Positions 793-61,368 of a stretch of DNA of 64,000 bases are shown piece after piece (positions within the stretch are counted from its first letter, which is position 1; each line of letters begins with the position of its first letter). The DNA is from Candidatus Poribacteria bacterium (GTDB lineage Bacteria; Poribacteria; WGA-4E; JAJDTR01): positions 3,840,001 through 3,904,000 of the forward strand of contig CBDCTK010000002.1 in assembly GCA_965222225.1 (NCBI GenBank). The letters run 5' to 3'. The position numbers were made by a program, and so were the translations under genes. The notes beneath the pieces are model-generated. The model did not search any database and had not been told where the DNA came from. It worked only from the letters and a program-made list of their open reading frames with translations.

Positions 793-829
793 GATTGACC
801 GAGAGGACAACGAGGGAGATAGAGATCCC
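793..829 (+). repeat. Degenerate copy of the GATCAA/GCGATAG hairpin element
   Basis: GATTGA CC GA GA GGACA AC GA GG GAGATAG AGATCCC. Confidence 0.65.
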
Positions 830-898
830 AAGAATCCGGCGGACGTGAATGGGGTTGTCAATGTATTTGATTTAGTGTTTGTGGCAAATCGATTCTGA
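830..898 (+). pseudogene. Remnant of a dockerin-like/EF-hand C-terminal repeat
   Basis: Translates NPADVNGVVNVFDLVFVANRF*, resembling DVNGDGVVNIxDLV; no upstream gene body. Confidence 0.5.
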
Positions 899-943
899 TC
901 ATGGCAGTGGACAGTAGAAACCGAATTTGAACGGAGATTATGT

Positions 944-1732
944 ATGGCGAACTATATTTCGAAGGTGAAATGGCAACATTACCGCGAGGAGGGGTATGCC
1001 CGAATTGGTCGGGTGGCAACTGATGAGGAACTTTCAGCGCTCCAAAGCCGAATTGATGATATCATGCTCGGCAAAGCGCCGTTGGACTATGACCGGCTGA
1101 TGATGCAACTCGACCGTGAACCGGGCACGGAGGGGCCGGGACCTCAAACTAACGGTCACAAAGGGGCGACGCTGTCGTATCGAAAGATTCAGTCGCTTGA
1201 GTTCGATCCGCTTTTCCTTTCATACTTGCAGAAACCGGTTTTCCGCGAGGCGTGCGCGAAGGTGTACGGCGACGAAACTCGCATCACCTGCTATCGAGCG
1301 ATGTTTATGAACAAACCGGCGCGTGAAGGCACTCAGCTGAACTGGCATCAAGACCGATGGTCGCATCTTGACCGGGAGCCGTTACTTACCATCTATACGG
1401 CGCTTGACCCGGCGACGGCGGAGAACGGTTGTGTCCGGATTATTCCGAACTCTCATCGTAACCTTGTCCCCCTGACTCGACCTGACGAACGCCGCGCCCA
1501 GGTGGAGAGGATTGTAGCGGAGTCCGAGTCGATTCCGCTTGAGTTGGAAGTGGGCGATGTCGTGCTGCTGCACAATTGGATGTTTCACAGCTCCGGGGTG
1601 AATTCTAGCGATGTGCCGCGCCGAGCGTTTAGCGTGTGCTACATGCCCGCGGAAACGAAGTCTAGCGAAGGGCTAACGTATTCGCGAATTTTTGGAGATG
1701 GGGCGTTGTCGGTTAGCCAATTAACCGGATGA
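944..1732 (+). CDS. PhyH family dioxygenase
   Basis: WHQD, ENGCVRIIPNSH, HSSGVN..RR motifs; GGAG RBS. Confidence 0.9.
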   Translation: MANYISKVKWQHYREEGYARIGRVATDEELSALQSRIDDIMLGKAPLDYDRLMMQLDREPGTEGPGPQTNGHKGATLSYRKIQSLEFDPLFLSYLQKPVFREACAKVYGDETRITCYRAMFMNKPAREGTQLNWHQDRWSHLDREPLLTIYTALDPATAENGCVRIIPNSHRNLVPLTRPDERRAQVERIVAESESIPLELEVGDVVLLHNWMFHSSGVNSSDVPRRAFSVCYMPAETKSSEGLTYSRIFGDGALSVSQLTG

Positions 1733-1951
1733 AAGTGGCTAAGAGTACGCTCCGAGAGCCTGCTTTTGTGATGGGCGGCGAAGCGATTTTTGGTGATTTG
1801 AGAGGAAGAGGCGCCGCAGTTTGACAATAATGCAAGGCCTGAGGTGAGTTAAATCGGACAGATTAACAATAGAAATTCCGGAGAGAAACACCAAAACAAC
1901 GTGTGTTTAACGTGTGTTTATAGTAAAATCAATAGTTATTTATTCACTGAG

Positions 1952-2020
1952 GTAGGTTCGGTTTCCTAACCGAACCGGTATTTATCCAGTGTCGCAGGTG
2001 CGGTTGGAAACCGCACCTAC
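1952..2020. repeat. Inverted pair of GTAG-headed REP-like hairpins
   Basis: GTAGGTTCGGTTTCCTAACCGAACC and GGTGCGGTTGGAAACCGCACCTAC. Confidence 0.7.
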
Positions 2021-2057
2021 CGAAATATGTGTAAATGTGAATAGAGTTGGCCATACA

Positions 2058-2687
2058 ATGTCCCAATCCATCAATATAGAATTCATATGCGACCAACTGC
2101 GCCTGAAGGACCAGAAACTCGCCGAGGTCATTGATATCGTTGGTGCGTGCACCCTAGCTCCCGGGTGCGCCGCCTTCAATTTCTTGTGCGATGCCATTAT
2201 CCGTCAGCAACTCTCAAAACATGCCGCCAACACGATAATTCATCGCTTTCATGAACTTTTTGACTGCGGAAATCCCACGCCAAAGCAACTCCTGGCTCTA
2301 CCAAAGCAGGAAATACTTGATGCGGGCATATCGAATCGGAAGTGCGGATACCTAATGGATTTGGCGCACAAAACCGAAACGCAACAGCTAAACTTCTCGA
2401 CACTCGAGGAAAAGAATGATTGTACTATTCGACGCCTCCTCAAGGAGGTGAAAGGTATAGGCGATTGGACTGTTGACATGTATTTGCTTTTCGGTCTTGG
2501 CAGGATTGACGTGTTTCCCGTGAACGATCTCGCGCTGCGGAAATCAATGTCCTCTCTTTACGGTTTGACCGTCAAAGACCTCGAAGGTGCTAAGAAAGTA
2601 GCACAGAAATGGAAACCATACCGCAGTATTGCTAGCCTGTACATGTACAAGCATGGAGATTTGCAAACCCAAGAAACCCGCACTTGA
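2058..2687 (+). CDS. DNA-3-methyladenine glycosylase, AlkA/HhH-GPD family
   Basis: IIRQQLS, VKGIGDWTVDM (HhH), FPVNDL and WKPYRS motifs; ATG start chosen downstream of the REPs. Confidence 0.88.
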   Translation: MSQSINIEFICDQLRLKDQKLAEVIDIVGACTLAPGCAAFNFLCDAIIRQQLSKHAANTIIHRFHELFDCGNPTPKQLLALPKQEILDAGISNRKCGYLMDLAHKTETQQLNFSTLEEKNDCTIRRLLKEVKGIGDWTVDMYLLFGLGRIDVFPVNDLALRKSMSSLYGLTVKDLEGAKKVAQKWKPYRSIASLYMYKHGDLQTQETRT

Positions 2688-2782
2688 ATGTTAGCGGTTT
2701 CGTATGGATTTCCGTTCAACCTAACCTACATAACTGGGGTATAGCCGCGCTAACGGCTTTGCTACAGAGGTTCGTCATAGAA

Positions 2783-2807
2783 GTAGGGAACGCAGATCTG
2801 CGTTCCC
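2783..2807 (+). repeat. GTAG-headed REP hairpin (identical copy at 26380-26404)
   Basis: GTAGGGAACGCAGATCTGCGTTCCC palindrome. Confidence 0.75.
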
Positions 2808-2835
2808 TGAACTCGTATGCGCCCACGAGCGGCTC

Positions 2836-3705
2836 TCATCGAGAATGCTTTATCCGTCCCCACGTTGTAGCGAGTTTGTCAATAGACTCCACTGCGGTGG
2901 TGCCGCCTACCGTTTGGGCCATGTCGGCGTTGATCTCGTCCGCGCTGAGCCACCGATCCCACATCTTGAAATTGACCGCCGAACAGTTGCACGCTTGAAC
3001 CTGTTCTCCTGCACTATTGGCAAATAACGCGTGCAGGTTCATCGGGCGTTCGGGGTCAAAGGTTACCTCGGACGGCACTTCACCTGTCATCTCGCCATCA
3101 AGATAAAACGTCACCACAATCCCGCTTTCAAAGGCGACGTGCATGAAACGCCAACGGCCTTGACCGAGATCCAAACCGGTATCCGCGATGGACTCGTGAT
3201 CTTCCCGCACGCCGATGACGGGCTGCATGATATTCACATTGTCAATCCATCCCCAATCGCCCTCGTCAAAGGGAAGCATCACGCGCATGGTCTGGTTCTC
3301 TTCCGGGGCATTGGAATGGATGCCGTACATGTGATGTTCCTCCGCCTCGCCGGGAAACCGGCTGCCGTTGATTCTCACCAACGAGGTCCACGTCCAATTC
3401 TCAAGGAAAACCACGGGAGCCTCGTCAAGGGGTTCATCGTTGGCGAAAACCGCGTGGGAATCGGGCACTGTGTAATATTTCGTGAAGAAGGACATGCCGG
3501 CAACCTCCACCGTGCCCTCTTCAAGTTTGGGATGGTCGTCGGTTTGCGGCACTGCGCCGCCAGCGGAACCGCTGTTTGCCCACGTCTCGGCATCGTCATC
3601 CTGTGTGTTGGCGTCAAAAAACAGTACGGGCGGTTGCGCGAGCGCCATCGGGCACGCCAGTACAACGATGAAGAGTAGGCTCAATGTTCATCTTGTGTGT
3701 GTCAT
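2836..3705 (-). CDS. Secreted LamG/concanavalin-like protein with C-terminal KLATTWGRIK motif; in-frame TGA at codon 6 (possible pseudogene, or restart at TTG 3684)
   Basis: Signal peptide, WRFMHVAF..FYLDG and FKMWDRWLSADEI LamG-like motifs; AGGAGG RBS precedes ATG 3705. Confidence 0.7.
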
Positions 3706-3993: not shown

Positions 3994-4177
3994 GAACCTG
4001 TTTGGAAAGTACATTTGCAGGGCGCGCACTGCGATCAACTGACTGGATAAGAAAGGCGATAGCTAATCCCGTGCGATAGAAGTCCCGATAGGTGTATAGC
4101 AGGCGACCACAAAAGCATGAAAAAGCCGCGCCCAAAGTGACTGAAATTGCTTTGCCACCTATTATTCAAACAGGCTC
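3994..4177. mobile_element. MITE, GAGCCTGTTTGAA-TIR family, carrying the hairpin element at 4033-4091
   Basis: Ends GAACCTGTTTGGA / TTCAAACAGGCTC, flanked by TTA on both sides. Confidence 0.8.
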
Positions 4178-4224
4178 TTAAGGTTTTTGCTAGTCACTAA
4201 ACACTTTCTCCAATTCTTAATGCA

Positions 4225-5206: not shown

Positions 5207-5416
5207 TATAGTCATTGCAACTAAGAATTACACATGTGTTTATTAACATACCCAAATTCCCACCCATTCCCGTAGGTCGGGATCAACCGAACGAATAGTG
5301 AGGGCGATAGAGATCCCTTCCAGCCCGACCCGCTCAATGGGAAACGTCGCAAACCGGGAGATTGTGAGCTAAGTCGAGTCAATCAATGCTCATATGTGTA
5401 AATATAAATGACTATA
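5207..5416. mobile_element. Putative second MITE with TATAGTCATT..TTACACAT imperfect inverted ends; contains a REP filled with the hairpin element
   Basis: Left TATAGTCATTGCAACTAAGAATTACACAT, right ATGTGTAAATATAAATGACTATA. Confidence 0.55.
5272..5330 (+). repeat. REP with inserted GATCAA/GCGATAG hairpin element (5281-5317)
   Basis: GTAGGTCGG GATCAA CC GA AC GAATA GT GA GG GCGATAG AGATCC CTTCCAGCCCGACC. Confidence 0.85.
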
Positions 5417-5822: not shown

Positions 5823-5914
5823 GGGACCTCTATCGCAAGGGATTTGCTATGGGATCTCTATCGCATTCGCTAATCGCTCATTTGATCCTATCCGGTCGCT
5901 TGATCCCAGTCTAC
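5823..5914 (-). repeat. Nested hairpin-element cluster within a REP
   Basis: Minus strand GTAGACTGG GATCAAGCGACCGGATAG [GATCAA AT GA GC GATTA GC GA AT GCGATAG AGATCCC] ATAGCAAATCCC TTGCGATAGAGGTCCC. Confidence 0.8.
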
Positions 5915-5944
5915 AGACTGTCATTGTATCACAATCTGCGACTG

Positions 5945-9378: not shown

Positions 9379-9495
9379 ATCGCGACCGGGAGAGGATCTC
9401 TATCGATAAAAGGAACGGACAGTGACTACGATAGTATCCTACTCACTACGGGATTTACTATCGCCTTCACTATTCGTTCAGTTGATCGCTCCTAC
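9379..9495 (-). repeat. Hairpin-element cluster within a REP
   Basis: Minus strand GTAGGAGC GATCAA CT GA AC GAATA GT GA AG GCGATAG TAAATCCC plus further partial units. Confidence 0.8.
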
Positions 9496-9575
9496 GGTTG
9501 GTAGCGATTGTTGTTGACCGAGAAGCGAAAGCGGGGTAAAATTCTCCCGCATTTGTCATATGGAATCACCTCTAA

Positions 9576-9786
9576 GAGCCTGTTTGAATAATCGGTGGCA
9601 AAGCCATTTTTAGTTATTTGTCGGAAGTTTTTTCATGTTTTCATTGTTGGCTGCTACATACCTGTCGCCCTGCTGGGGCTTAGGTGCACGGGGTTTTTGG
9701 TGTTTCTATACACCTTCCGCCCCTCTGGGGCTTTAGATGCTAGTGCGCAGTGCGCACCCTACAAACTGTACTTTTCAAACAGGCTC
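9576..9786. mobile_element. MITE, GAGCCTGTTTGAA-TIR family (copy without hairpin element)
   Basis: Perfect 13-bp TIR, TAA target duplication, internal REP-like hairpins. Confidence 0.88.
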
Positions 9787-9850
9787 TAAGAGTGATGGAG
9801 AGCATTGACTTTAACCAAATCGAATGATGCCGCATCCGAAGGGTTTGAAG

Positions 9851-11233: not shown

Positions 11234-11288
11234 GTAGGGTGGGATCAAGGGAGCGAATAGCGACCGCGATAGAGTTCCACTGCCCACC
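11234..11288 (+). repeat. REP with inserted hairpin element
   Basis: GTAGGGTGG GATCAA GG GA GC GAATA GC GA CC GCGATAG AGTTC CACTGCCCACC. Confidence 0.85.
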
Positions 11289-12980: not shown

Positions 12981-13070
12981 GAATCAAGCGAGTGAATAGC
13001 GAGTGATCAAGGGAGTGGCAAGCGACCGCGATAGAAATCCCATAGAAAATCCTGTGCGATAGAAGGTCCC
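12981..13070 (+). repeat. Nested hairpin-element cluster
   Basis: AATCAA GC GA GT GAATA GC GA GT [GATCAA GG GA GT GGCAA GC GA CC GCGATAG AAATCCC] ATAG AAAATCCT GTGCGATAGAAGGTCCC. Confidence 0.8.
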
Positions 13071-19982: not shown

Positions 19983-20128
19983 TTGGGTTTCACGGGACCT
20001 CTATCACGCGGGATTTACTATCGCTTTCGCTATGGGATTTACTATCGCACTCGCTGTCCGCTCGGTTGATCGTTCGTTTGATCTCAGTCAATCCTATTTC
20101 GGTCGCTTGATTCTTCTACCCAACCTAC
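19983..20128 (-). repeat. Multiply nested hairpin elements in a GTAGGTTGGG..GTGAAACCCAA REP
   Basis: Minus strand has four GATCAA-type left halves followed by three GCGATAG..TCCC right halves. Confidence 0.8.
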
Positions 20129-22429: not shown

Positions 22430-22608
22430 GTAGGAGCGATCAAGGGAGCGAATAGCGACTGCGATGGAGATTCCTTTATTGCGCGTCTTCTGTAGGAGCG
22501 AGTTTCACTCGCGACAGAAAGTCGTGGCCGGAAGAGGATTTCTATCGCACGGGATTGTCTATTGCACTCCTTATCTAGTCGCTTGATCGTTCTCCACTTG
22601 TTTGATCG
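22430..22608. repeat. REP cluster with hairpin elements in both orientations
   Basis: Plus unit at 22438 (GG/CT, GC/GC); minus unit at 22551-22588 (GC/GT, CT/AG); empty REP at 22492. Confidence 0.8.
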
Positions 22609-22732: not shown

Positions 22733-24349
22733 ATGATGAAAACGTTAACGTTCATCCTTATCGGTCTTGTCTGCGGATTCGTGTCGGTAACACCCCTTGC
22801 GGGCGAAGAGGTCAAGCTGATTGGTGTCGATCAAGGTGCGACGAACAGCCACATGTCCGTCGATATTATCGGAGACTCCATCATTCTCGGGGGCCAAATA
22901 TTGGCGCACAACATGAAGGACAGCTTCGCGACAATTTTCACATGGGATGCGAAAAGCTGGAAACGGACAGCGGAACTTCACCCCGGTGACCGCGACCCGG
23001 CGAACCCCGGCGCTGGCGACTTTGGATGGTCGGTCGCCGTTGACCGCATCCGTTGGTGGGGCATCACGAACTATGCTATCGTCGGAGCACCGCTGGACGA
23101 TGCTGCCGGCGCTAAGTCCGGATCGGCTTATATCTACGCCCGCACCGGAAACAACTGGAAACAGCAGGTGAAACTTATCGCCGATGATGCAGCAGCTGGC
23201 GACGCTTTCGGGTATGCCGTCTCCGTTTACGGAACCACGGCGGTCGTCGGTGCACCGAAGGACGATGACTCCGGCAGCAACTCGGGTTCAGCCTATGTGT
23301 TCGTGCGCGATGAGAACAGTTGGACGCAACATTCGAAACTCGTGCCGCAAGATTTGGGCGGATCCGATGCTTTCGGAGAGGCAATCTTAATCGTAGAGGA
23401 CACCGTTATCATCGGGGCGCCCGGACATACGCACGGTGAAATAAGATTCGCAGGTGCCGTCTACGTCTTCGTACGCGAAGGCGTGGCGTGGCTGCAAAAA
23501 GCCAAACTCACGGCAGACGACGCAGCAGCCAGCGATCGATTCGGAAATGTCCTCGCCATGAGCGGAAACACCCTCATCGTTGGGGCGCCATTGCGTGATA
23601 CGCAGGCAGGAAAAGACGCGGGCGCCGCCTACGTTTTCTCTCGCGACGGCGACCTCTGGAAACAGAGGGAGAAGCTCAAAGCCAAGAGCACACGGAAGAA
23701 CGACCATTTTGGCACCAGCGTCGCAACCACCGGAAAAATTGCCATCATTGGAGCGAATTTGCACGAAGAAAACGCGCTCGCCTCAGGTGCGGCATATTCC
23801 TTCGTAAATGTTGACGGGGTCTGGGAGGAAAGGGACAAGGTCGTGCCCGCGGACGCCGGTTTAAACACCCGTTTCGGCACGTGGGTCGCCATGAGCGGTA
23901 ACACTGTCGTTGCGTCTGCCGGGGTGACGCCGCACCCCGTCGCCGGAAGAAGTACCGGAACGGCAGCCTATGTGTATAATAGCATAGAGGATTTCAACAC
24001 ACCTCCGTACGCTGTTCGACCCGTTGGTTTAACCGTGACGACGCTAGGCAAGCTGAAGCGCACGGCGCTTTATCAGAACTTCCCCAATCCGTTCAACCCG
24101 GAAACATGGTTGCCGTATCGTCTGGCGGCAGATGCTCCGGTGACGTTTCGCATCTACAACACCCAAGGGCAACCGGTGCGAGAGTTGGATTTGGGCAGCC
24201 AAGCGGCGGGTGATTATCTGTCCCTAGAAGCGGCTGCCTATTGGGATGGCAGGGACGAATTGGGCGAGATTGTTTCGAGCGGCGTCTATTTCTACACGCT
24301 TCAGGCTGGCGTGTTCCAAGCCACGCGGCGGATGCTAATTTTGAAATAG
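22733..24349 (+). CDS. Secreted FG-GAP repeat beta-propeller protein with FlgD-Ig/T9SS-like C-terminal domain (paralog 1)
   Basis: Signal peptide; FG.SV...VGAP...G.AY repeats; QNFPNPFNPETW..YWDGRD..G..VSSGVYFY. Confidence 0.88.
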   Translation: MMKTLTFILIGLVCGFVSVTPLAGEEVKLIGVDQGATNSHMSVDIIGDSIILGGQILAHNMKDSFATIFTWDAKSWKRTAELHPGDRDPANPGAGDFGWSVAVDRIRWWGITNYAIVGAPLDDAAGAKSGSAYIYARTGNNWKQQVKLIADDAAAGDAFGYAVSVYGTTAVVGAPKDDDSGSNSGSAYVFVRDENSWTQHSKLVPQDLGGSDAFGEAILIVEDTVIIGAPGHTHGEIRFAGAVYVFVREGVAWLQKAKLTADDAAASDRFGNVLAMSGNTLIVGAPLRDTQAGKDAGAAYVFSRDGDLWKQREKLKAKSTRKNDHFGTSVATTGKIAIIGANLHEENALASGAAYSFVNVDGVWEERDKVVPADAGLNTRFGTWVAMSGNTVVASAGVTPHPVAGRSTGTAAYVYNSIEDFNTPPYAVRPVGLTVTTLGKLKRTALYQNFPNPFNPETWLPYRLAADAPVTFRIYNTQGQPVRELDLGSQAAGDYLSLEAAAYWDGRDELGEIVSSGVYFYTLQAGVFQATRRMLILK

Positions 24350-24416
24350 TAGCACCCACGCAGTTGACCCGCCAAGCTCGACTTTGTACAAAAATACAAT
24401 TCTGAATTGCCATCTT

Positions 24417-24551
24417 GTAGGGTGCGCACTGCGCACCAGCCTTTGAAAGCTCCAGCGCGAGATCAAACGAGTGAATAACGAGGGATCAAGCGACTGGATA
24501 GGGAGCGTAGAAGTCCCATAGCAAATCCCGTGCGATAGAGATCTCGACAGG
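24417..24551 (+). repeat. MITE-interior-type REPs with nested hairpin elements (24461-24546)
   Basis: GTAGGGTGCGCACTGCGCACC..CTCCAGCG, two GATCAA units and three right halves, then CGACAGG. Confidence 0.75.
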
Positions 24552-24724
24552 TTGCATAGTATCAGGAACCGCTTGAGACTTTTTCAATGGTCAACCAAAA
24601 AGACCAAATGTCTAAAATCTCCTCCATTTTTCTTCAACGCTTGATTGACACCGTTTGTTATCCCGCTTAAATGTACAAAGTCGAGTTAAACAGTTACGTA
24701 CAAACAATATAGCACGGCAAGGAG

Positions 24725-26359
24725 ATGGTCATGAAAACGACTCAGTTTATCCTCATCAGTCTTGTTGTTGGCATCGCCATGGGGAGCGCCAGTCACGCCG
24801 CCGAAGGCGAAATCAAGCTCATCGGAGCTGAGGAGGGAGCACGCAATAGAACACGTATGCCCGCCGATGTTGTCGGAAATGTCATAATCGTCGGCGTACA
24901 TGATGTGGATGTCAACAACATTCCCGGCGCGGGCAGAATCTACACACGGAATCGGACAAAGTGGGAACAGACCGCGGAACTCATCGCCCACGACCGCAAT
25001 CTAGATCAAGCCAAGCCGGGGCAGCCGGGATTCGGGTTCGCCGTCTCCATCAGCGGTCGTCCCGGGAGGACAAGCGCGGACTATGCCATCATCGGAGCGC
25101 CGGGCGACGACGACGCCGGGAAAAACGCCGGGGCAGCCTACATCTACGCTTTCAACGGGAAAGACTGGAAACAGGAGGTGAAACTTACCGCTGTGGACTC
25201 AGAAGCGGGAGACGCTTTCGGGTATGTGGTCTCGGTTGATGGGACCACTGCGGCGGTTGGCGCGCCCAAGGACGATGATGCCGGCAGCAATTCGGGGGCA
25301 GCTTTTGTCTTAGTGCGCGATGCGAATAGATGGAAGCAGCATGCGAAGCTCATCCCCAAAGATTTGGCGAAATCGGACGCACTGGGTGAGGCAGTCGACA
25401 TTCAAGGGGACACCGTAATCGCCGGGGCGCCCGGGCACACTCATGGCGGCGTAAGGTTCGCCGGCGCCGTTTACGTTTTCGTGCGTGATGGGGATGCGTG
25501 GAAGGAACAAGCTAAACTCACGGCCGACGATGCGGCACCTAGCGACCGATTCGGAGTTTCGGTTGGCATTGAAGGCGACACTGTCATCGTCGGATCGCTG
25601 CTGAACGATGCTGGCGGTAAGAAAGATGCCGGCGCCGCTTACATCTTTGTCCGTGACGGAAACAACTGGAAACAGCAGGCAAAACTGATTGCACCGAAGA
25701 AGCGAAAGGGCGACCATTTCGGTGCAGCGGTTGCCACCACCGGTAAGATTTCCGTCGTTGGCGCACCGCTCCGCGAAGAGGGCGGACTCGGCGCGGGTGC
25801 CGCGTATTCATTTGTTAACGTTGACGGCGTCTGGAAAAATGCGGAAACGGTTGTGCCCGAGGGCGCCGCGCCAAACCTCGTTTTCGGCTCCGCGCTTGCC
25901 ATAAGCGGCGATACGATTGTCGTTGCTGGCGGTGCCGCCCCTGAAGTCGCTGCCGGATTCGGTAATGGTACAGCGGCATACGTTTATAGCGGGGAGAAGC
26001 ACTTTGGCACACCACCCTTCGCTGTCGAGCCGTTTGGATTGAAGATCGCAACGCTGGGACAGGTCAAACGCACCGCGCTCTTTCAAAATTTTCCCAATCC
26101 GTTCAACCCGGAAACATGGTTGCCGTATCGTCTGGCGACAGATGCTCCGGTGACGTTTCGCATCTACAACACCCAAGGGCAACCGGTGCGAGAGTTGGAT
26201 TTGGGCAGCCAAGCGGCGGGTGATTATCTGTCCCTAGAAGCGGCTGCCTATTGGGATGGCAGGGACGAATTGGGCGAGATTGTTTCTAGCGGCATCTATT
26301 TCTACACGCTTGAAACTGGGGCGTTCCAAGCCACGCGACGAATGCTGATTTTGAAGTAG
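24725..26359 (+). CDS. Secreted FG-GAP repeat protein with FlgD-Ig/T9SS-like C-terminal domain (paralog 2)
   Basis: Same architecture as paralog 1. Confidence 0.88.
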   Translation: MVMKTTQFILISLVVGIAMGSASHAAEGEIKLIGAEEGARNRTRMPADVVGNVIIVGVHDVDVNNIPGAGRIYTRNRTKWEQTAELIAHDRNLDQAKPGQPGFGFAVSISGRPGRTSADYAIIGAPGDDDAGKNAGAAYIYAFNGKDWKQEVKLTAVDSEAGDAFGYVVSVDGTTAAVGAPKDDDAGSNSGAAFVLVRDANRWKQHAKLIPKDLAKSDALGEAVDIQGDTVIAGAPGHTHGGVRFAGAVYVFVRDGDAWKEQAKLTADDAAPSDRFGVSVGIEGDTVIVGSLLNDAGGKKDAGAAYIFVRDGNNWKQQAKLIAPKKRKGDHFGAAVATTGKISVVGAPLREEGGLGAGAAYSFVNVDGVWKNAETVVPEGAAPNLVFGSALAISGDTIVVAGGAAPEVAAGFGNGTAAYVYSGEKHFGTPPFAVEPFGLKIATLGQVKRTALFQNFPNPFNPETWLPYRLATDAPVTFRIYNTQGQPVRELDLGSQAAGDYLSLEAAAYWDGRDELGEIVSSGIYFYTLETGAFQATRRMLILK

Positions 26360-26459
26360 TTGAAACTTCCTTAATGAGTGTAGGGAACGCAGATCTGCGT
26401 TCCCAACTACGCTCGACTTTGTGCATTTGTAAGGTGGGCACTCTGCCTTACATTTTTAT

Positions 26460-26515
26460 GTAGGAGGGGATCAAGCGAACGGATAGTGAGTGCGATAGAG
26501 ATCCCATTGCCCCGA
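26460..26515 (+). repeat. REP with inserted hairpin element
   Basis: GTAGGAGGG GATCAA GC GA AC GGATA GT GA GT GCGATAG AGATCC CATTGCCCCGA. Confidence 0.85.
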
Positions 26516-26632
26516 TGTTTTATCTATAGCGTGCCATTATCCCTGTCGGAATATTTCCCTCATCAAGAAACACTCATTTTTCACTCTATGACTAGCTTTG
26601 AGAAAGTGTTACTTGGTAAAAGTTCAAAGGAG

Positions 26633-28267
26633 ATGGTCATGAAATTGACTCAGTTTTTCCTCATCAGTCTTGTTGTTGGCATCGCCATTGGGAGCGCCAG
26701 TCACGCCGCCGAAGGCGAAATCCAGCTCATCGGAGCTGAGGCCGGAATACGCAATAGAGGTCGAATGCCCGCCGATATTGTGGGAGATGTCGTAATCGTC
26801 GGCGTGCATAATGTGGACCACGACAAGTTTCCGGGCGCCGGCAGAATCTACACACTGAATCGGAATAAGTGGGAACTGACCGCGGAACTTACCCCTCATG
26901 ACCGAAAACTGAATATACCGAATCCGGGGCAGCCGGGGTTCGGATACGCTGTCTCAATCAGCGCGCCGCCAGGACGCAGAAACGCGGACTATGCCATTAT
27001 CGGAGCGCCGGGCGATGACGAAGCCGCAGAAAACGCCGGGGCAGCCTACATATACGCCTTCAACGGGCATGACTGGCAACAGGAGGTGAAACTTACCGCT
27101 GCCGACGCGGGGCAGAGAGACGCTTTCGGGTATGTGGTCTCGGTTGATGGCACAACCGCGGTGGTTGGCGCGCCCGGGGACGATGATGCCGGCAACAATT
27201 CCGGGGCAGTTTATGTCTTCGTCCGCGATGCGAACGGATGGAAACAGCACACCAAGCTCGTCCCCAAAGATTTGGCGAAATTGGATGCATTCGGTGATGC
27301 GGTCGGGATCCAAGCGAGCACCCTTATTGTCGGGGCGACCGGGCACACACATGGCGGCGAAAGATTCGCAGGCGCTGTTTTCGTCTTCGTCCGCGATGGC
27401 GATACGTGGAGGATGCAAGCCAAACTCACGGCTGACGATGCGGGTGCCGGTGACCAGTTCGGCGCTTCGGTTGGCATGGAAGGCGACACTATTATCGTAG
27501 GAGCCAAAAAGCACGATTCCGACGGCATAAAAGACGCCGGCGCCGCATATATTTTTCAGCGCGACGGAAACACTTGGAAACAGCAGGCAAAGCTAACTGG
27601 GCCAAAGAAGCGAAACGGGGATCACTTCGGAACAGGCGTTGCCACGAGCAGGAATATCGCGATCGTTGGCGCGCCGCTCCGGGAAGAGGGCGGACCCAGC
27701 GCGGGTGCCGCGTATTCCTTCGTGAATGTTGACGGCGTCTGGAAGAATGCTGCAACGGTGGTGCCCGACGTCGCACATCCAAACCTCTTTTTCGGCTCCG
27801 CGATCGCCATAAGCGGCGATACTGTCATTGTCACTGGCGGAGACGGACCGGAAAAGGGCGTCGGAGTCGGTAACGGAATAGTGGCGTATGTTTATGGTGG
27901 AGCAGAGCACTTCAATACCCCGCCTTTCGCCGTCGAGCCATTTGGTTTGAAGGTCACAACTTTGGCTCACCTCAAACGCACTGCACTCTATCAAAACTTC
28001 CCCAATCCGTTCAATCCGGAAACCTGGCTGCCGTATCGTCTGGCGACAGACGCACCGGTAACGTTTCGTATCTACAACATCCAAGGGCAACCGGTGCGAC
28101 AGTTGAATCTGGGCAGGCAAACAGCGGGTGATTATCTGTCCCGAGAAACGGCTGCGTATTGGGATGGCAGGGACGAATTGGGCGAGATGGCTTCCAGCGG
28201 CGTCTATTTCTACGCGCTTGAAGCTGGGGCGTTCCAGGCTACGCGACGGATGCTGATTTTGAAGTAG
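26633..28267 (+). CDS. Secreted FG-GAP repeat protein with FlgD-Ig/T9SS-like C-terminal domain (paralog 3)
   Basis: Start set by homology with paralog 2 (AAGGAG ATGGTCATGAAA). Confidence 0.88.
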   Translation: MVMKLTQFFLISLVVGIAIGSASHAAEGEIQLIGAEAGIRNRGRMPADIVGDVVIVGVHNVDHDKFPGAGRIYTLNRNKWELTAELTPHDRKLNIPNPGQPGFGYAVSISAPPGRRNADYAIIGAPGDDEAAENAGAAYIYAFNGHDWQQEVKLTAADAGQRDAFGYVVSVDGTTAVVGAPGDDDAGNNSGAVYVFVRDANGWKQHTKLVPKDLAKLDAFGDAVGIQASTLIVGATGHTHGGERFAGAVFVFVRDGDTWRMQAKLTADDAGAGDQFGASVGMEGDTIIVGAKKHDSDGIKDAGAAYIFQRDGNTWKQQAKLTGPKKRNGDHFGTGVATSRNIAIVGAPLREEGGPSAGAAYSFVNVDGVWKNAATVVPDVAHPNLFFGSAIAISGDTVIVTGGDGPEKGVGVGNGIVAYVYGGAEHFNTPPFAVEPFGLKVTTLAHLKRTALYQNFPNPFNPETWLPYRLATDAPVTFRIYNIQGQPVRQLNLGRQTAGDYLSRETAAYWDGRDELGEMASSGVYFYALEAGAFQATRRMLILK

Positions 28268-28408: not shown

Positions 28409-28486
28409 AGGATCTCTATCAATCAACTGACCGAACAAGGAAGGCGATAGAAAATCCCACTCCCTATCCATCGTTTGATCCCCGAC
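28409..28486. repeat. Plus-strand hairpin element inserted into a minus-strand copy
   Basis: GGATCTCTATC [AATCAA CT GA CC GAACA AG GA AG GCGATAG AAAATCCC] ACTCCCTATCCATCGTTTGATC. Confidence 0.75.
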
Positions 28487-33265: not shown

Positions 33266-33336
33266 ACCCACTCAACCCGTTAGGGTGTGTTGACATTTAT
33301 GTGAGACACCCACCAATGCGAACACCGTACCAATGA

Positions 33337-33448
33337 GGAATTTCTATCGTCCTCGTTGTTCATTCGGTTGATTGCTCCTTATTCATTATTCAGTCGCTTG
33401 AGGGGATTTATATCGAACTCCCTTTTCGATTACTTGATCCCGCCCTAC
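33337..33448 (-). repeat. Tandem degenerate hairpin elements in a REP
   Basis: Minus strand GTAGGGCGG GATCAA.. with three units, the last AATCAA CC GA AT GAACA AC GA GG ACGATAG AAATTCC. Confidence 0.75.
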
Positions 33449-36449: not shown

Positions 36450-36507
36450 GTAGGGGCGAGGATCAAGTGAGCGAATAGCGAATGCGATAGGGATCTTCCC
36501 CTCGCCC
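36450..36507 (+). repeat. REP with inserted hairpin element
   Basis: GTAGGGGCGAG GATCAA GT GA GC GAATA GC GA AT GCGATAG GGATCT TCCCCTCGCCC. Confidence 0.85.
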
Positions 36508-36651
36508 AACGGGTTGGGAGGCACAACCCCTACGGATGCCGGTGCATGCCTAGTCGGGAGCGTGGTTCCCTCGTCCGTTCCTCCTACGGGTTAAGCTGTG
36601 TTCACATGTTAAAAGAACGTGCCAATCACAAACAGAACCCGCAAGGGCGGG

Positions 36652-36785
36652 GATCAAATGAGATCAAGCGAGTGCGATAGTAGATCCCATAGTGAATGAT
36701 CAACTGAGCGAATAGCGAAGGCGATAGACAATCCTACTCGCTATCTGTTCGCTTGATCGTTATCCGCTCGTTAGATCGCACCTAC
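36652..36785. repeat. Complex hairpin-element cluster with units in both orientations
   Basis: Three plus-strand GATCAA units (complete one at 36698: CT/AG, GC/GC) and two minus-strand partial units ending in CCTAC. Confidence 0.8.
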
Positions 36786-40381: not shown

Positions 40382-40504
40382 GAAGGAGTGATCAACCGAC
40401 CAGACAGGGACGGCGATAGAAATTCCCTCCGATTCGCGACTCCGATTGCCGACAGTTAAAGATCCCTATCGCATTCCTTATTCAGTCGCTTGATCCCGAC
40501 CTAC
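40382..40504. repeat. Two convergent REPs, each filled with a hairpin element
   Basis: Plus unit at 40390 inside GAAGGAGTGATC..TCCGATTCGCGAC; minus unit 40460-40495 inside a GTAGGTCGG REP. Confidence 0.82.
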
Positions 40505-42502: not shown

Positions 42503-42620
42503 GATCAACCGACCGGATAAATCAAGCGATCGAACAGGGGGCGATCAAGGGAATGAAAAATGACCGCGATAGAGTTCGCATAGGGATCCCAGGGCGATAG
42601 AAAATCCAGATAGAGATCCC
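42503..42620 (+). repeat. Triple-nested hairpin elements inside an AGAAACCGA..CTCGGTTTC palindrome
   Basis: Three left halves then matching right halves in reverse order; empty host type at ~15531-15564. Confidence 0.82.
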
Positions 42621-42700
42621 TTTCAGGAAAAATCTCGGTTTCAACACCTTGGAATTTACAAAGGCTGGCGGGATTTCTACACCTGAACAAAACGGGCTAC

Positions 42701-42742
42701 GAGCCTGTTTGAAAAGTACAGTTTGTAGGGTGCGATCAGCTG
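42701..42742 (+). mobile_element. Single left end of the GAGCCTGTTTGAA MITE, truncated at a hairpin-element start
   Basis: GAGCCTGTTTGAAAAGTACAGTTTGTAGGGTGC GATCAGCTGA. Confidence 0.65.
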
Positions 42743-54210: not shown

Positions 54211-54219
54211 CGTTGTGAG

Positions 54220-54353
54220 GTAGGAGTGATCTCCGAATCAATCAACCGAGTGGATAGCGAGTAGGATTTTCTATCGCCTTGGGATTTCTATGAACTCCAT
54301 CACACTCGCTATTCACTCATTTGATCCCTCGTTGTCCACTCGGTCAATCCTAC
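54220..54353. repeat. Convergent REPs with hairpin-element units in both orientations
   Basis: GTAGGAGTGATCTCCGAATC AATCAACCGAGTGGATAGCGAGT ... CTCGCTATTCACTCATTTGATC ... CCTAC. Confidence 0.78.
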
Positions 54354-54458: not shown

Positions 54459-56030
54459 TCAAATGAGAAGCTCGTCGCCGATTGGAAAGAATTGATCCGC
54501 CATTCGTTGCAGGTCCATGGATGTATTATGCTCGAAAGCGACAACCTCGACTCGCTTGCCTTGTTGCTTTATAAGCTCCGCAAGCGCGCAAAAGTCACCG
54601 TCGCCGCTGGCTAGAATTACGACATCAAGCGCTCCTAGCATTGACACGATGTCAATTGCGATGCCCACATCCCAGTCCCCCTTTGCTGTACCATCTCCTC
54701 GGAGACGCAAGTCCTTGCTTTTTATGGTATATCCATTATGCTCAAGAAGGGACAAAAATCCCGACTGGTTTATCTCGGGAATCTGGACGACATAGGCATA
54801 CGCCACGACAAGCTGCCGCGGGCCAACGATGAGATCGAGTAGTTTGATATAATCCACTCGCCCGGCATACCGGTCTTTGGCGGCGTAGAACATGTTCTGA
54901 ACATCCACAAAAACACCAACACTCGGCTGTTCTTTCAGTACCCTATTTTGCAAACTCTGTCTGGAATCGTGTTGACCAAAAAATTGTTCCACTTTGTCGC
55001 GGGTGCGTAGAAGTGCCGACTTTGACATCTCGGAGAACTTGCTCAGTTCTGATACCTGCGACTGGAAGTCCGAGTGCATTCGTTCAATCGTTTGATTACC
55101 TTTATAAACGAGTTCCTCAAAGGATTTCAATTCAACAGCAAACTCCGCTTGCGTAACCTTCTGAAAGGATTGAATTTCCGCAGACTGATTCGACAGTTTT
55201 TCAACCTGCCGTTTGAGGTTGTGAATCTCCAGTTGTAGCTGTTGAACATGTATATCTTGTTCCATGAATCGGTGTTCTTTTTCCCGGAAATCCTCGTTTT
55301 CTTGAAGAGACTGTTGCAGTTGCCGTTTGAGGTCTTCATTATCTTTTTTTTGAGCGGCATACTCATCGTTCAGTTGATTTACCGTTTGCTGGAGTCGGAC
55401 AAGTTTCCGATTAGTTTCGAGATGGGGATCTTCCTTTGGAATTGGGGCCTGTGCGATTTTCTCGGTCAGTACGTCCGCACCAACGTCCAATGCTTGAATT
55501 GCATTGATGCTTTCATTTGTCCTAGTTTTCGGCGAGTGGACACCGCGATTGGTGTCATTAGTTTTTGCGTCATGTTCGGATCTCGTCAAGCTGCCAAAAT
55601 TGGCTATTTCATGGACAGACTGCTCATATTCTTTGAGGAGTTTTTGTCCGTGCCGTTGGACGTCTTGGCGGGAATCAGTCAAAAGTGCCCACACAATCTC
55701 GGTGAAGTCTCCTCCTTCGACCAAAAGTGTGCAAGTTCTTAGGAAAGTTTGAATCTCCTGCAAATCCATATAGCCGACCCGGCGAATTGCTCCTTCCGTC
55801 TTCTGCACGAGATACTCATGCACGACCTGTTGAGCGGTCTCTTGACGAAAAAAAGCCTCGGCTAGATTCTCGATAACCCAATTGACAGAACGAGAGTCCA
55901 TCTGCGCGGGGGCGTCACGGATACCGCATCGGGTTTTTAGGCTGGTTATCTCCTTTTCGTCAAGCAATTCAGTAAGAATCCAAGTAAGTTGGTGTTTGTC
56001 GATTTGAATCTTTATATTTTGCTGAATCAT
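54459..56030 (-). CDS. NYN (LabA/DUF88 PIN-fold) domain protein with long N-terminal helical/coiled-coil region
   Basis: VFVDVQNMFY, KGDWDVGIAID, LASGDGDF, GKRVEV, ADQF. Confidence 0.88.
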   Translation of the reverse strand: MIQQNIKIQIDKHQLTWILTELLDEKEITSLKTRCGIRDAPAQMDSRSVNWVIENLAEAFFRQETAQQVVHEYLVQKTEGAIRRVGYMDLQEIQTFLRTCTLLVEGGDFTEIVWALLTDSRQDVQRHGQKLLKEYEQSVHEIANFGSLTRSEHDAKTNDTNRGVHSPKTRTNESINAIQALDVGADVLTEKIAQAPIPKEDPHLETNRKLVRLQQTVNQLNDEYAAQKKDNEDLKRQLQQSLQENEDFREKEHRFMEQDIHVQQLQLEIHNLKRQVEKLSNQSAEIQSFQKVTQAEFAVELKSFEELVYKGNQTIERMHSDFQSQVSELSKFSEMSKSALLRTRDKVEQFFGQHDSRQSLQNRVLKEQPSVGVFVDVQNMFYAAKDRYAGRVDYIKLLDLIVGPRQLVVAYAYVVQIPEINQSGFLSLLEHNGYTIKSKDLRLRGDGTAKGDWDVGIAIDIVSMLGALDVVILASGDGDFCALAELIKQQGKRVEVVAFEHNTSMDLQRMADQFFPIGDELLI

Positions 56031-56066: not shown

Positions 56067-56182
56067 GTAGGATCAAGCGAACGATCAACTGAGCGGATAG
56101 CGAAGGCGATAGTAAATCCCATAGTGAGTGCGATAGAGATTCCCTCAAACGAGATCGACCGAACTGACAGTGAGTGCGACAG
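56067..56182 (+). repeat. Hairpin element nested in the loop of another, plus a third degenerate copy
   Basis: GATCAA GC GA AC [GATCAA CT GA GC GGATA GC GA AG GCGATAG TAAATCCC] ATA GT GA GT GCGATAG AGATTCC. Confidence 0.85.
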
Positions 56183-56232
56183 CTTTTTCCCGCTTTCTCT
56201 GATTATCCGTAGGAACGATCTTCCAATCCCTA

Positions 56233-59215: not shown

Positions 59216-59832
59216 TTAAGTGTACCTTTGATGACTTCAAACTTGAAGACAAAAGTGGTTTGCGTATCTTCGAAGTCGTTGCTAACTTTCGGCACGATGA
59301 CGCGTAGACTTGTAGATTTAATGCTCCGCTTGCGAAAGTAGAGGAAGAATTGCGTCCGATGATTTGGCATGATCGTCGTTCTTTCGATATCTTCTCGAGG
59401 AAGCGCGACCGAGCTTCCTTCCGTGCGAAGTGTGCGGTCATGTCGAAAGAGTTCCATCGCAAATTCGGGAGGCAACTTCGGCTTAAAATTTTTGCCCAAG
59501 AAGAACGACTCTTGGGACTTGTCAATCGGCTTTGTTACGTTGCCAGCCTGATCCAGCAACTGGCAATCTTTTCGTTTGAACGAAACCCAATTGCTAGTGC
59601 GGTTAAATATCAAAATACCGAATGCGTCAACTGCCTTCACATCGTTCAGCGGCACAGCCATCGCCGTGATGCCGTCTTTCTCGTAAATGACAGTGCCAGT
59701 CTGTGGAAGAATGACCGCCTCCGCGTCAAATTGTGGGACAATCTGCACGGGTTGCAGGGCGGAACATCCCAAGGTTGTCGCCAGTAGTAGGAACGCTATA
59801 ATTTCTGTGCCGAGTTGTGTATATTTTTTCAT
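59212..59832 (-). CDS. Hypothetical lipoprotein
   Basis: Signal peptide with TLGC lipobox; stop overlaps the next gene's start. Confidence 0.7.
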   Translation of the reverse strand: MKKYTQLGTEIIAFLLLATTLGCSALQPVQIVPQFDAEAVILPQTGTVIYEKDGITAMAVPLNDVKAVDAFGILIFNRTSNWVSFKRKDCQLLDQAGNVTKPIDKSQESFFLGKNFKPKLPPEFAMELFRHDRTLRTEGSSVALPREDIERTTIMPNHRTQFFLYFRKRSIKSTSLRVIVPKVSNDFEDTQTTFVFKFEVIKGTLK

Positions 59833-59917
59833 AGGACTTTGGACGCGAGAAACGCTTCCTTTCGTTGATTTTTTAGTGTCATAGGTAGGAGGGAATTCCG
59901 ATTCCCGACGATTGGCT

Positions 59918-60064
59918 TCAACCTAGGGCGGATTCCATCTCGCTCGAAAGATCAAGACTCTTTTGCGCGATCAGGTTGGGCGTGAGCGTGGTGGCTGCTA
60001 CGATGCCGATTAACATGAGCACGCCGCCGAGCGCAATGTACCCCGATTTCTGCTTGTAATTCAT
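59918..60064 (-). pseudogene. 48-aa ORF that is mostly a signal peptide; probable truncated secreted-protein gene
   Basis: MNYKQKSGYIALGGVLMLIGIVAATTLTPNLIAQ..*. Confidence 0.45.
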
Positions 60065-60138
60065 ATATATCTGCCTTTTGTACGGAAAATATGTAGGTTA
60101 GGTTTAGTTGAATATGTGGGAATAGTAAGATTCCATAA

Positions 60139-60297
60139 GAGCCTGTTTGAAAATACAGTTTGTAAGGTGCGATCAAGCGAATGAATAATGAGCGCGATAG
60201 AGATCCTACAGATATGTAGCAGCCAACAATGAAAACATGAAAAAACTTCCGACAAATGACTAAAAATGGCTTTGCCACCGATAATTCAAGCAGGCTC
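60139..60297. mobile_element. MITE, GAGCCTGTTTGAA-TIR family, with internal hairpins replaced by a hairpin element (60171-60206)
   Basis: TIRs, TAA duplication; 159 bp vs ~210 bp for the unfilled copies. Confidence 0.88.
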
Positions 60298-60371
60298 TAA
60301 GATTCCCTTTTCAAGTAAAAACTAGGATTCACCGCAAGTACATTTTCAATCGGATTCTTATAGCTATTCGC

Positions 60372-61217
60372 TTACGAACACTCGGTGGAGGTTCCACGTG
60401 CCTTGGCGAAGAAACCGAGCAGCTTTCCCAGTGTTTCAGGCAAGCCCTCACGCGGAATGTAGCGATCGATGAACGCGTCGCAATTCGGTGCGTCCAGGAT
60501 GCTTTCCATCCTCGTCTGTGTGGCGGCGACAAGCCGTTGTTCCGTAAGGGTGAGGGCAGAGGGACTTGCGCCTTCAGCCAATACAATATCGCCTGTCGGA
60601 AATCTGGTTGAGAGTGCGCCGGCGTTCGCGTCTGTCAGCACAGTTATCTGTGGCAGCCTTGTTTCCGACAGTTTCGCCATTTCGGTTGATAGATAAGTGA
60701 TTTCGGCGAAGGACAACTCGGAGGCAGATGTTCGATCTGTCGCATTCAACTTCGGCACGGCGTCGTTTGAATAAACGCATATCAGCGGAAACCCCTTCAG
60801 CAGCGCGGTACGAATCGCAATGAGCAGTGTGACGAAATGAAGTCGCTGTGGGGGCGCAAGAGGATGAATAACAGTCAGAATGGTCGGGCATCCTGAAATC
60901 TCCCCCTCGCCAGCGGCTATAATGCGATCCGGCAAATCCGGGCAAACGGTTTGAGCAACCAAATCCGTAAGATCGAGGGATTCCAGCAATGATGGCGGTG
61001 CGGAGGTAGGAAAAAGGTCTGTCCATAAGTCGGTTGAAAATATATGGTTCAAACGTTGCTCTGCCGGGAAAGGAAGATAGTACCCACACGAGGGGCAGAG
61101 GTACAGATTGCGTTCTAACGCTTGCCTGAACGCAAGTTCATCACAACCATCGCACTTATGCCATAACCCGTCGGGGCTTTCTTTATGTTCTGTTGCTGGA
61201 TTCACTGGCGTCTCCAC
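60372..61217 (-). CDS. Degenerate acetyl-CoA carboxylase carboxyltransferase beta (AccD)-like protein
   Basis: PDGLWHKCDGC..L.RNLYLCPSCGY zinc ribbon, GDIVLAE, FIDRYIPR..L..TL; catalytic Gly motifs absent. Confidence 0.65.
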   Translation of the reverse strand: METPVNPATEHKESPDGLWHKCDGCDELAFRQALERNLYLCPSCGYYLPFPAEQRLNHIFSTDLWTDLFPTSAPPSLLESLDLTDLVAQTVCPDLPDRIIAAGEGEISGCPTILTVIHPLAPPQRLHFVTLLIAIRTALLKGFPLICVYSNDAVPKLNATDRTSASELSFAEITYLSTEMAKLSETRLPQITVLTDANAGALSTRFPTGDIVLAEGASPSALTLTEQRLVAATQTRMESILDAPNCDAFIDRYIPREGLPETLGKLLGFFAKARGTSTECS

Positions 61218-61299
61218 GAAATCGGTTTTTCATCAGCTAATACCATTCCGCTTGAATAATAGTGCATATGATGTCTGAATTATATCGTTCACTTTCTCC

Positions 61300-61368
61300 G
61301 TAGACGGGATCAACTGACTGGATAAGGAAGGCGATAGCTAATCCCGATAGAGATTTCCTTGCCCCGCC
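61300..61368 (+). repeat. REP with inserted hairpin element
   Basis: GTAGACGG GATCAA CT GA CT GGATA AG GA AG GCGATAG CTAATCCC GATAGAGATTTCC TTGCCCCGCC. Confidence 0.85.

Follow-up and report, generated by a model that had tools for sequence, protein, structure and literature searches.

The window analyzed here, a continuous stretch of 64,000 nt from a metagenome-assembled genome (MAG) of Candidatus Poribacteria (contig CBDCTK010000002.1, positions 3,840,001 to 3,904,000), raises the question of what kind of entity is represented by a dispersed element of some 35 nt, in which a minute hairpin, with stem letters that differ from copy to copy, is set between two blocks that do not vary. The existence of that element had been proposed in a first-pass annotation made from the letters of the window, and all twelve of the example copies named therein proved correct in position and stem letters, the three copies with one mismatch included. 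The core GATCAANNGA occurred 31 times in the window against 3.75 occurrences expected, and a count of at least 31 was reached in 0 of 100 shuffles; the entire host genome (5.70 Mb, two contigs) contained 496 strict full copies and 1,261 cores, with about 174 cores being expected by chance upon calculation from the 11.4 Mb of both strands. We consider the element to be a very small, non-autonomous, mobile DNA repeat resembling repetitive extragenic palindromic (REP) elements, and recognized as a folded single strand rather than as duplex sequence, to which reading we assign a probability of roughly 0.6. The earlier proposal of a very small unit recognized by its single-stranded shape is in this respect supported by three lines of evidence: the covariation of the stems, the asymmetry between the strands, and the comparison of filled with empty sites.

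On the strand that reads GATCAA, the hairpin consists of two base pairs (X), a tandem G.A/A.G mismatch, two further base pairs (Y), and a GRATA loop. An invariant unpaired block is found on either side—GATCAA on the 5' and GCGATAG on the 3'—and variation is restricted to the four Watson-Crick or wobble pairs, which co-vary. The constant core, from GATCAA through GCGATAG, measures 30 nt and the whole hairpin about 35 nt. The tail that had been described downstream, GCGATAGNATCCC, could for its part not be upheld as written: at up to two mismatches the window contained 7 matches versus 5.31 expected, because both the length and the sequence of the tail vary. Among 559 genome copies, the tail comprised 7 nt in 257 and 8 nt in 128, and was unrecognizable in 142. 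The genomes of genus g4 (L042, L048, L050, L056, L064, L085, L086) have the 30-nt core unchanged, along with a TCTT..CC-like tail instead of AGATCCC; since the tail differs in this manner between g4 and g1, the genus of the window, it is lineage-specific, and it probably lies outside the recognized core. According to crude calls of open reading frames, 625 of 674 genome copies were located outside those frames.

The compensatory variation claimed for the stems was borne out in the 496 strict copies, where the four pairs were Watson-Crick or G.T in 97 to 98% of the cases and had a mutual information of 0.89, 1.20, 1.23, and 0.50 bits, as against at most 0.48 bits, and mostly less than 0.3, for the other pairs of positions. 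In an alignment of 98 sequences from several genomes, 96.2% of the cells paired versus 63.3% after shuffling; double changes numbered 159 versus 28 in the shuffles, the covariation score was reached by 0 of 500 shuffles, and the signal was abolished when the partner column was shifted by 1 to 3 positions. Furthermore, G.T and T.G pairs were roughly twelve times as frequent as A.C and C.A pairs (198 versus about 16 among the 496 copies), which excess is too large for a mutational strand bias and therefore points to a requirement for pairing on the GATCAA strand. With respect to the claim that this strand is the only one that folds, that asymmetry stands in its favor, whereas the folding energies failed to separate the two strands; the nearest-neighbor energies being indecisive, the claim of single-strand folding therefore rests on the covariation. 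The same data bear on the alternative that the copies form an array of duplex binding sites for a nucleoid or regulatory protein, with the hairpin being incidental. The recurrence of ATAG about every 12 nt through the body, the tail, and the extra tail modules of the compound copies would suit such an array, yet the latter explains neither the covariation of four pairs nor the difference between G.T and A.C, and leaves the insertion polymorphism unaccounted for as well; we regard it as highly improbable.

A covariance model (R1) embodying the proposed structure was built from 98 copies, of which the window contributed 20 and public Poribacteria genomes 78. In the window it retrieved 24 copies at E ≤ 0.0011, including 20 that belonged to its own seed, together with 8 weaker or partial matches. 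As to the diversity of the stems, the 681 copies detected under a relaxed pattern comprised 294 distinct 30-mers and 151 combinations of X and Y, with certain subfamilies being over-represented (e.g., AG/CT with AT/AT, 55 versus 12.3 expected). The idea that the stems had been generated by fold-back synthesis found no support, in that most combinations of the allowed X and Y letters are present, chimeras with broken pairs occur, and the inserts arrive whole. The diversity would more readily derive from the coexistence of many transposition-competent source copies, in conjunction with short-patch exchange, than from compensatory evolution at each site.

Direct evidence for mobility, which had been raised as a possibility in the first-pass annotation, was furnished by filled and empty orthologous sites among congeners. 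We compared the window (whose genome is designated G000) with the orthologous regions of four congeners, of 100 kb each, which regions were collinear with it and had flanking genes 85 to 92% identical, the alignments breaking at the intergenic regions. The 23 bracketed orthologous comparisons, which covered 14 of the window's 18 element clusters, listed at the corresponding place no copy with matching stem letters; at least two copies were nonetheless orthologous by alignment, namely that at 26469 in G005 and a degenerate one at 13005 in G009. The site at 11243, filled in G000, is occupied in G005 by an intact GTAG-tagged REP whose apex is uninterrupted; the copy at 26469, which stands alone in G000, has in G005 taken up another copy within its loop; and a stepwise locus has a REP with no element in G000, G005, and G002, with a single element in G001, and with two, one nested in the other, in G009. 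A search based on the flanks of 146 copies yielded 17 flank-pair matches, corresponding to 11 distinct loci, of which 9 were simple events.

In all nine of those simple events the insert began with ATCAA directly after a G (G|ATCAA), the next base of the empty allele being C in seven, G in one, and T in one. The 3' junction was variable, with 0 to 4 target bases being replaced by the insert, and no target duplication was seen at the filled and empty loci. The inserts measured 34 to 38 nt, or 45 to 49 nt with an extra tail module, and were found preferentially at G|C, located in other small hairpins at either their apex or their 3' foot. The targets comprised the GTAG REPs, the repeat CCCCAG.GGGGCGAYAGG, the element's own loop, its own G|CGATAG, and the tail of a copy standing in inverted orientation; this set of targets accounts for the compound, nested, and tandem arrangements. 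The GTAG present upstream of about 30% of the copies is part of the host REP that received the insertion. Among 13 loop-nested cases, the inner X was CT/AG in all 13 and the outer Y was AC/GT in 12, which pattern may equally represent one compound subfamily that spreads as a unit. In the tandem arrays with a 38-nt period, every unit ends in GTAG and the stems differ between the units, which features fit a repeated insertion beside a regenerated target. In one such array (C2:1578263-1578671), located inside a copy of a MITE (miniature inverted-repeat transposable element), the period is made up of the 30-nt core plus TCTTGTAG, and the stems differ from unit to unit, some being chimeric. The densest region of the genome, at 1.5 to 1.6 Mb, contains 92 relaxed cores ([GA]ATCAA..GA).

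The junctions are pertinent to two further explanations. In the first no dedicated enzyme would be involved: template switching or short-patch repair would occur between hairpin repeats, with microhomology at G and C/ATAG, and the stems would be kept by intrastrand mismatch correction. Such a process would agree with the replacement, and not duplication, of short target segments, with the presence of chimeric units in the arrays, with targets that are likewise hairpins, and with return points that often fall at sequence common to the donor's surroundings (GATAG, ATAG, C). Microhomology, however, should scatter the 5' junction, which fell at one and the same phosphodiester bond in each of the 9 simple events; the 30-nt core is kept across unrelated hairpin families and in two bacterial families; and G.T attains 12 to 22% at two of the pair positions among the 496 copies, so that mismatches are not simply corrected. 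In the second explanation the hairpin would be transcribed, reverse-transcribed, and integrated, giving one exact and one ragged junction. Spread through an RNA intermediate has reportedly been discussed for the small dispersed repeats of cyanobacteria, and the exact 5' junction, the variable 3' junction with loss of target bases, and the tandem G.A with a GNR(N)A-like pentaloop, which are typical of RNA, would all be in keeping with that route, as would one weak reverse-transcriptase-like match of 27.5 bits (29.9 with its neighbors; cut-off, 29.6). Target-primed reverse transcription nevertheless puts the exact junction at the 3' end of the RNA, whereas here that junction is at the 5' end of the folding strand; moreover, no link with the direction of transcription and no poly(A) or primer-like feature was found, and the candidate reverse transcriptase is both single and marginal. 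We judge either of these two explanations improbable.

Whether the shape is used in DNA or in RNA can be approached through the orientation of the copies. On the basis of crude gene calls, 218 copies in tandem spacers were co-directional with the flanking genes and 190 antisense to them, and the density of copies per kb was equal in convergent, divergent, and tandem spacers. The orientation correlated with GC skew in 100-kb bins (Spearman rho -0.54, p 7e-5), the corresponding rho for gene-strand bias being -0.06, and the GATCAA strand coincided with the locally C-rich strand in 441 of 674 copies and with the G-rich strand in 233. A like bias is present in this genome's GTAG REP families (e.g., 92 versus 34), so that part of the element's bias may be inherited from the host repeats; in addition, the bias could arise if copies having their better-folding strand on the lagging-strand template were lost. 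The GC skew of chromosome C2 was itself patchy, with many changes of sign at the 100-kb scale and without two clean replichores, which suggests that inversions have been frequent or that the assembly was joined at repeats.

These results have to be set against the alternative of a structured RNA motif, which might be a small RNA or an element acting in cis within transcripts and is possibly the candidate named "Poribacteria-1", where selection would act on an RNA function and the G.A pairs with a GRAUA loop would serve as a module for protein binding or tertiary contacts. In keeping with such a motif, the G.U-compatible covariation is confined to one strand, and contigs of RNA libraries from two studies span the copies at 40390-40495 (X1 record 7, X9 record 32); those libraries, however, were available as Logan contigs, which break at most repeats, carry no information on strand, ends, or level, and may include DNA. 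An RNA motif would, moreover, not be expected to track GC skew without preference for gene orientation or type of spacer, nor to lie inside other repeats and inside copies of itself, nor to be unconserved at the orthologous sites of congeners. Neither the window nor 140 kb of relatives gave a match to an Rfam 15 family at the gathering score, and at E ≤ 10 nothing related appeared in the window, in a 761-nt stretch with three copies, or in the 140 kb of relatives, the presence of Poribacteria-1 in that library being unconfirmed; the name itself was not found in the literature text searched, which included the main text of Weinberg 2017. We consider an RNA motif unlikely. One RNA-library contig omits 26470-26506, exactly 37 nt, in the manner of an empty allele, which instance was left uncounted, with its shorter side being 25 nt; a 58-nt skip at 42681-42738 in run X15 corresponds to the end of a MITE and is unrelated to the element.

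The distribution of the element is patchy, as is expected of a mobile element. When public genomes were scanned with the strict pattern, all 80 loci among the matches listed belonged to Candidatus Poribacteria MAGs. Strict copies numbered 280 to 761 per genome in 10 of 10 genomes of g1, 111 to 126 in g4, which belongs to another family, 2 in one g2 genome, and 0 in the remaining 16 genomes searched. The model R1 matched 17 of 151 genomes sampled across the phylum, in which scan 42 candidates were scored per genome, so that the counts per genome saturate: 8 of 8 genomes of g1 in addition to the window's own, 4 of 4 of g4, 1 of 1 of g2 (3 copies), 1 of 1 of g11 (1 copy), 2 of 20 of g6 (one genome with 19 matches), and 0 of 100 of the family f2.

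With regard to the machinery, a transposase of the Y1/HUH type probably moves the element in trans. The host genome contains five Y1_Tnp matches, the best of which is a 157-aa IS200-type TnpA (NF033573, 65.8 bits with a cut-off of 55; REP-associated model, 30.6 bits with a cut-off of 80) whose nearest solved structure is that of a Deinococcus ISDra2-type TnpA (E about 1e-5). The gene for this protein, at C2:3080255-3080728, is bracketed in the host genome by inverted copies of the element, as is a second, truncated Y1 gene, and two further Y1 genes have their own GTAG REP each. At least four distinct genes resembling Y1 transposases or REP-associated tyrosine transposases (RAYTs) are found at loci that include L013 (C2:3087437-3090769), L014 (C2:3726239-3729466), and L011 (C2:3078872-3082216), each one being flanked by inverted copies from a repeat family of its own (GTAGGAGCGATCTCC..., GTAGTAGGCA..., CCCCAG.GGGGCGACAGG...); the L013 gene has an in-frame TAG, and several L011 homologues in relatives carry single stops. 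The flanks of the CCCCAG repeat (CAAAG at the 5' and GCGAYAG at the 3' side) resemble the CAA and GCGATAG of the element, a likeness that is suggestive though unproven. Among element-positive genomes about 15 of 18 had the IS200-type gene, and among element-negative ones about 21 of 43; the genomes being related, we draw no conclusion from these figures. In its relation to the resident Y1 systems, the element resembles a parasite or else a substrate that they act upon in trans.

In the mechanism that we envisage, a Y1/HUH single-stranded-DNA transposase, for which the genome has at least five genes of the RAYT or IS200 type, would nick at G|ATCAA beside the hairpin, and the cut strand would then be transferred into hairpin DNA that lies exposed in single-stranded form at the replication fork. 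The stems would act solely as a scaffold, and the G.A pairs, the loop, and the flanks would make the contacts with the protein, by a parallel with the central mismatch of the Escherichia coli REPs. That the 34- to 38-nt unit should rank among the smallest independently transposing DNA units for which filled and empty sites are on record, and should move by an undescribed mode—a hairpin nicked at G|ATCAA being passed in single-stranded form into the G|C at the apex or foot of another hairpin, with a few target bases replaced—is a proposal that we put forward tentatively, as possible but doubtful.

Several results weigh against the reading of the element as a mobile DNA hairpin moved by such an enzyme. 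Under DNA parameters, in which the tandem G.A receives no bonus, the proposed stems were part of the minimum-free-energy structure in 1 of 6 top strands (z -1.2 to +1.0), whereas RNA parameters, in a result that speaks for the RNA motif, gave the proposed fold as that structure in 4 of 6 (z -1.8 to +0.5); the bottom strands scored about like the top, and the predicted stability was weak, with energies not significantly lower than those of the shuffles. A dedicated transposase was not found at the loci of the two Y1 lineages that were followed. Of 61 genomes of the order, 36 have homologues of the IS200-type gene; in every genus these are flanked by another repeat, AAAGCCCCAG.GGGGCGAYAGGT, into which the mini-element has inserted secondarily at those loci in some genomes of the genus; and the intact relatives of the truncated Y1 gene are flanked by ordinary GTAG REPs, with the element at 0 of the 11 loci listed. 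The candidacy of either gene as a RAYT dedicated to the element was accordingly rejected, the bracketing being secondary in both. Inverted copies of the element bracket 18 of 3,910 crudely called genes, 17 of which, as judged from their first residues, resemble ordinary enzymes, so that bracketing by itself constitutes weak evidence. With respect to the known systems, the tag of the REPs is GTAG or CGTC and the invariant 5' block of the element is GATCAA; the "peel and paste" described for IS200/IS605 predicts no replacement of target bases, whereas the element replaces 0 to 4. The active strand of IS200/IS605 is reportedly, after Ton-Hoang in 2010, that on the lagging-strand template, the G-rich strand; the folding strand of the element, lying mostly on the C-rich strand (441/674), would, if it is the active one, run opposite to that rule, with which the bottom strand would agree.

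Should the element be moved by a RAYT-type enzyme, it would offer a direct view of REP-like spread and of the formation of nested REP mosaics. The mode by which REPs spread is stated as unresolved in PMC8266576, and clean events of single-unit insertion are seldom at hand; the element supplies many recent ones with junctions defined to the base, and a compact structure together with several candidate enzymes in one genome renders the question testable. A caution for the discovery of RNA motifs follows as well, in that strong one-strand covariation of the G.U type can arise in a mobile DNA hairpin having no fixed relation to transcription. Finally, the element brings about a fast turnover of intergenic regions in uncultured sponge symbionts, which circumstance bears on assembly and on strain typing.

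Within the window, the individual copies illustrate these insertion sites (R1 bit scores are given in parentheses). The highest-scoring copy, 26465..26508 (+), with X GC/GT, Y AC/GT, and a GGATA loop (63.7 bits), lies within a GTAGG-type hairpin, and it is this copy whose orthologue in G005 has the second element nested in its loop. Four others occupy host hairpins: 5277..5320 (+), CC/GG and AC/GT, in the loop of GGTCGGG...CCCGACC with GTAG before it (59.9 bits); 11239..11282 (+), GG/CC and GC/GC, at the apex of the REP hairpin GTAGGGTGGG...CCCACC, with the orthologous site being empty in G005 and filled in G003 (58.3 bits); 36457..36500 (+), GT/AT and GC/GC, in the loop of GGGCGAGG...CCTCGCCC, likewise after GTAG (53.3 bits); and 61304..61347 (+), CT/AG and CT/AG with an extra tail module, at the apex of GTAG.CGGG...CCCCGCC, with an empty orthologous site in G005 (53.4 bits). 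Copies are also found at 9448..9491 (-), CT/AG and AC/GT, behind GTAGGAGC (59.9 bits); at 22434..22477 (+), GG/CT and GC/GC, also behind GTAGGAGC (57.9 bits) and in an inverted pair with 22549..22592 (-), GC/GT and CT/AG (51.4 bits); at 40456..40499 (-), GC/AT with one mismatch and CT/AG, behind GTAGGTCGG (47.2 bits), paired in inverted orientation with 40386..40429 (+), in which one X pair is mismatched (48.6 bits); and at 4029..4072 (+), CT/AG and CT/AG-like, behind the ...GCGCACTGC of a REP and followed by an extra tail module (47.7 bits).

Nested arrangements comprise 56079..56122 (+), CT/AG and GC/GC, in the loop of an outer copy starting at 56071 (59.2 bits); 5848..5891 (-), AT/AT and GC/GC, behind a partial outer copy at 5905(-) (58.0 bits); 13001..13044 (+), GG/CC and GT/GC with a GGCAA loop, behind a partial copy (52.6 bits) and having the degenerate orthologue in G009; and 20032..20075 (-), CC/GT with one mismatch and GC/GC, in an outer copy at 20083(-) (51.2 bits). 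The copy 24480..24520 (+), whose 3' block is shortened, follows a partial copy at 24461 (42.3 bits). The copy 42539..42582 (+), GG/CC and AT/AT with a GAAAA loop, is part of a compound array starting at 42503 (52.5 bits). At 36694..36737 (+) a CT/AG and GC/GC copy (56.8 bits) stands tail to tail with 36719..36762 (-), whose Y pair is mismatched and which overlaps the tail of the former (31.8 bits), while 36648..36690 (+) is degenerate or compound, with two heads and one body (30.4 bits). The remaining copies are 54287..54330 (-), AT/GT and GT/GC with a degenerate 3' block (45.7 bits); 33334..33377 (-), degenerate and with an inexact GATCAANNGA match (41.8 bits); 28422..28460 (+), 5'-truncated or degenerate and opposite a further weak copy at 28446-28484(-) (35.4 bits); and a partial match at 798..832 (+), over model positions 10-44 (23.2 bits, E 0.019), which accounts for the start coordinate given in the earlier annotation.

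The copy 60167..60210 (+), GC/GC and AT/AT (62.8 bits), is inserted behind GTAAGGTGC in a MITE copy of about 160 nt, the extent of that shortened MITE-like copy, with the mini-element inside, being 60140-60300 (+). A fuller representative of the MITE-like host repeat, at 9572..9790 (-), measures about 215 nt, has terminal inverted repeats (AGAGCCTGTTTGAA...), and contains a GTAG-tagged REP hairpin and a CCCCAG.GGGGCGACAGG hairpin, both of which are frequent targets of the mini-element. The roughly 215-nt repeat occurs in very many copies at 80 to 93% identity in 10 of 10 genomes of the genus, its content being one GTAG REP hairpin and two CCCCAG.GGGGCG hairpins. Among the neighboring genes, three tandem paralogues at 22733-28267 (538, 544, and 593 aa) have FG-GAP repeats and a C-terminal FlgD Ig-like domain, with copies of the element in their spacers, and inverted copies enclose 54459-56030 (-), where a 523-aa protein with an NYN ribonuclease domain at its C terminus is encoded, probably by chance, since 18 genes are so bracketed genome-wide.

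Comparison with known systems places the element near several of them. The 38-nt arrays were considered as a CRISPR and rejected as such: the 38-nt period has an 8-nt constant linker, variable stems, and no spacers, and most copies are dispersed. The attC sites of integrons are recombination sites read as folded single strands, in which the structure is conserved, the sequence is free, and unpaired bases act as the signal; the element, by contrast, has no cassette open reading frames and measures 35 nt, attC sites being larger, and no attC core-site boxes were noticed, in an inspection that involved neither a formal search for them nor a search for an integrase. With IS200/IS605 and the palindrome-associated transposable elements (PATEs), the element shares a strand-specific, single-stranded logic, a hairpin beside a short cleavage motif, the absence of target duplication, and a replication-linked orientation. 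The PATEs are roughly ten times larger, and PATE and IS605 elements have subterminal hairpins on the left and right, whereas the element has a single one; IS200/IS605, for their part, use a fixed target of 4 to 5 nt, whereas the 4-mers upstream of the element are diverse. ISDra2 inserts 3' of TTGAT according to PMC2806898, and the invariant ATCAA of the element is that target in reverse complement, a correspondence that is suggestive though unproven.

There is likewise a resemblance to the REP/REPIN-RAYT systems. In common with these, the element is a short, extragenic, imperfect palindrome with hundreds of copies per genome (496 strict, 1,261 core), it has a single-stranded tag 5' of the stem and forms mosaic clusters, as do REPs and bacterial interspersed mosaic elements, and its genome contains several RAYT-like genes with REPs of their own. 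The E. coli REPs consist of a 5' tag and a stem whose central mismatch TnpA-REP needs, and the restoration of pairing abolishes activity, as reported in PMC8266576; the AA-GC mismatch described there is analogous to the element's invariant tandem G.A/A.G between covarying pairs, whose use by an enzyme would be suggested by that analogy. Compensatory changes are, in addition, common in REPIN hairpins, as stated in PMC3116915. The element differs from the REPs, however, in having stems of just 2+2 bp around the tandem G.A and, 3' of these, a second block that does not vary, GCGATAG, and most of its copies are single, nested, or tandem rather than REPIN doublets. Since the tag is neither GTAG nor CGTC, and no RAYT of the two Y1 lineages had the element as its own flanking repeat in the manner of a REPtron, we regard the element as REP-like and not as a member of that class; its single-unit insertion into other REPs is, for its part, documented here by filled and empty sites.

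The nearest behavioral parallel is to be found in the small dispersed repeats (SDRs) of cyanobacteria: the SDR4 to SDR6 of Nostoc reportedly, after Elhai et al. in 2008, are dispersed repeats of 21 to 27 nt that behave as if mobile, nest in other repeats and in one another, and keep their hairpin through compensatory changes. The two are thus alike in being tiny and nested and in having a hairpin that is kept, while the SDRs belong to the Cyanobacteria and are not known to be related in sequence or to contain a tandem G.A. Among miniature mobile DNA of the REP and SDR kind, the element is unusual in its junction rules.

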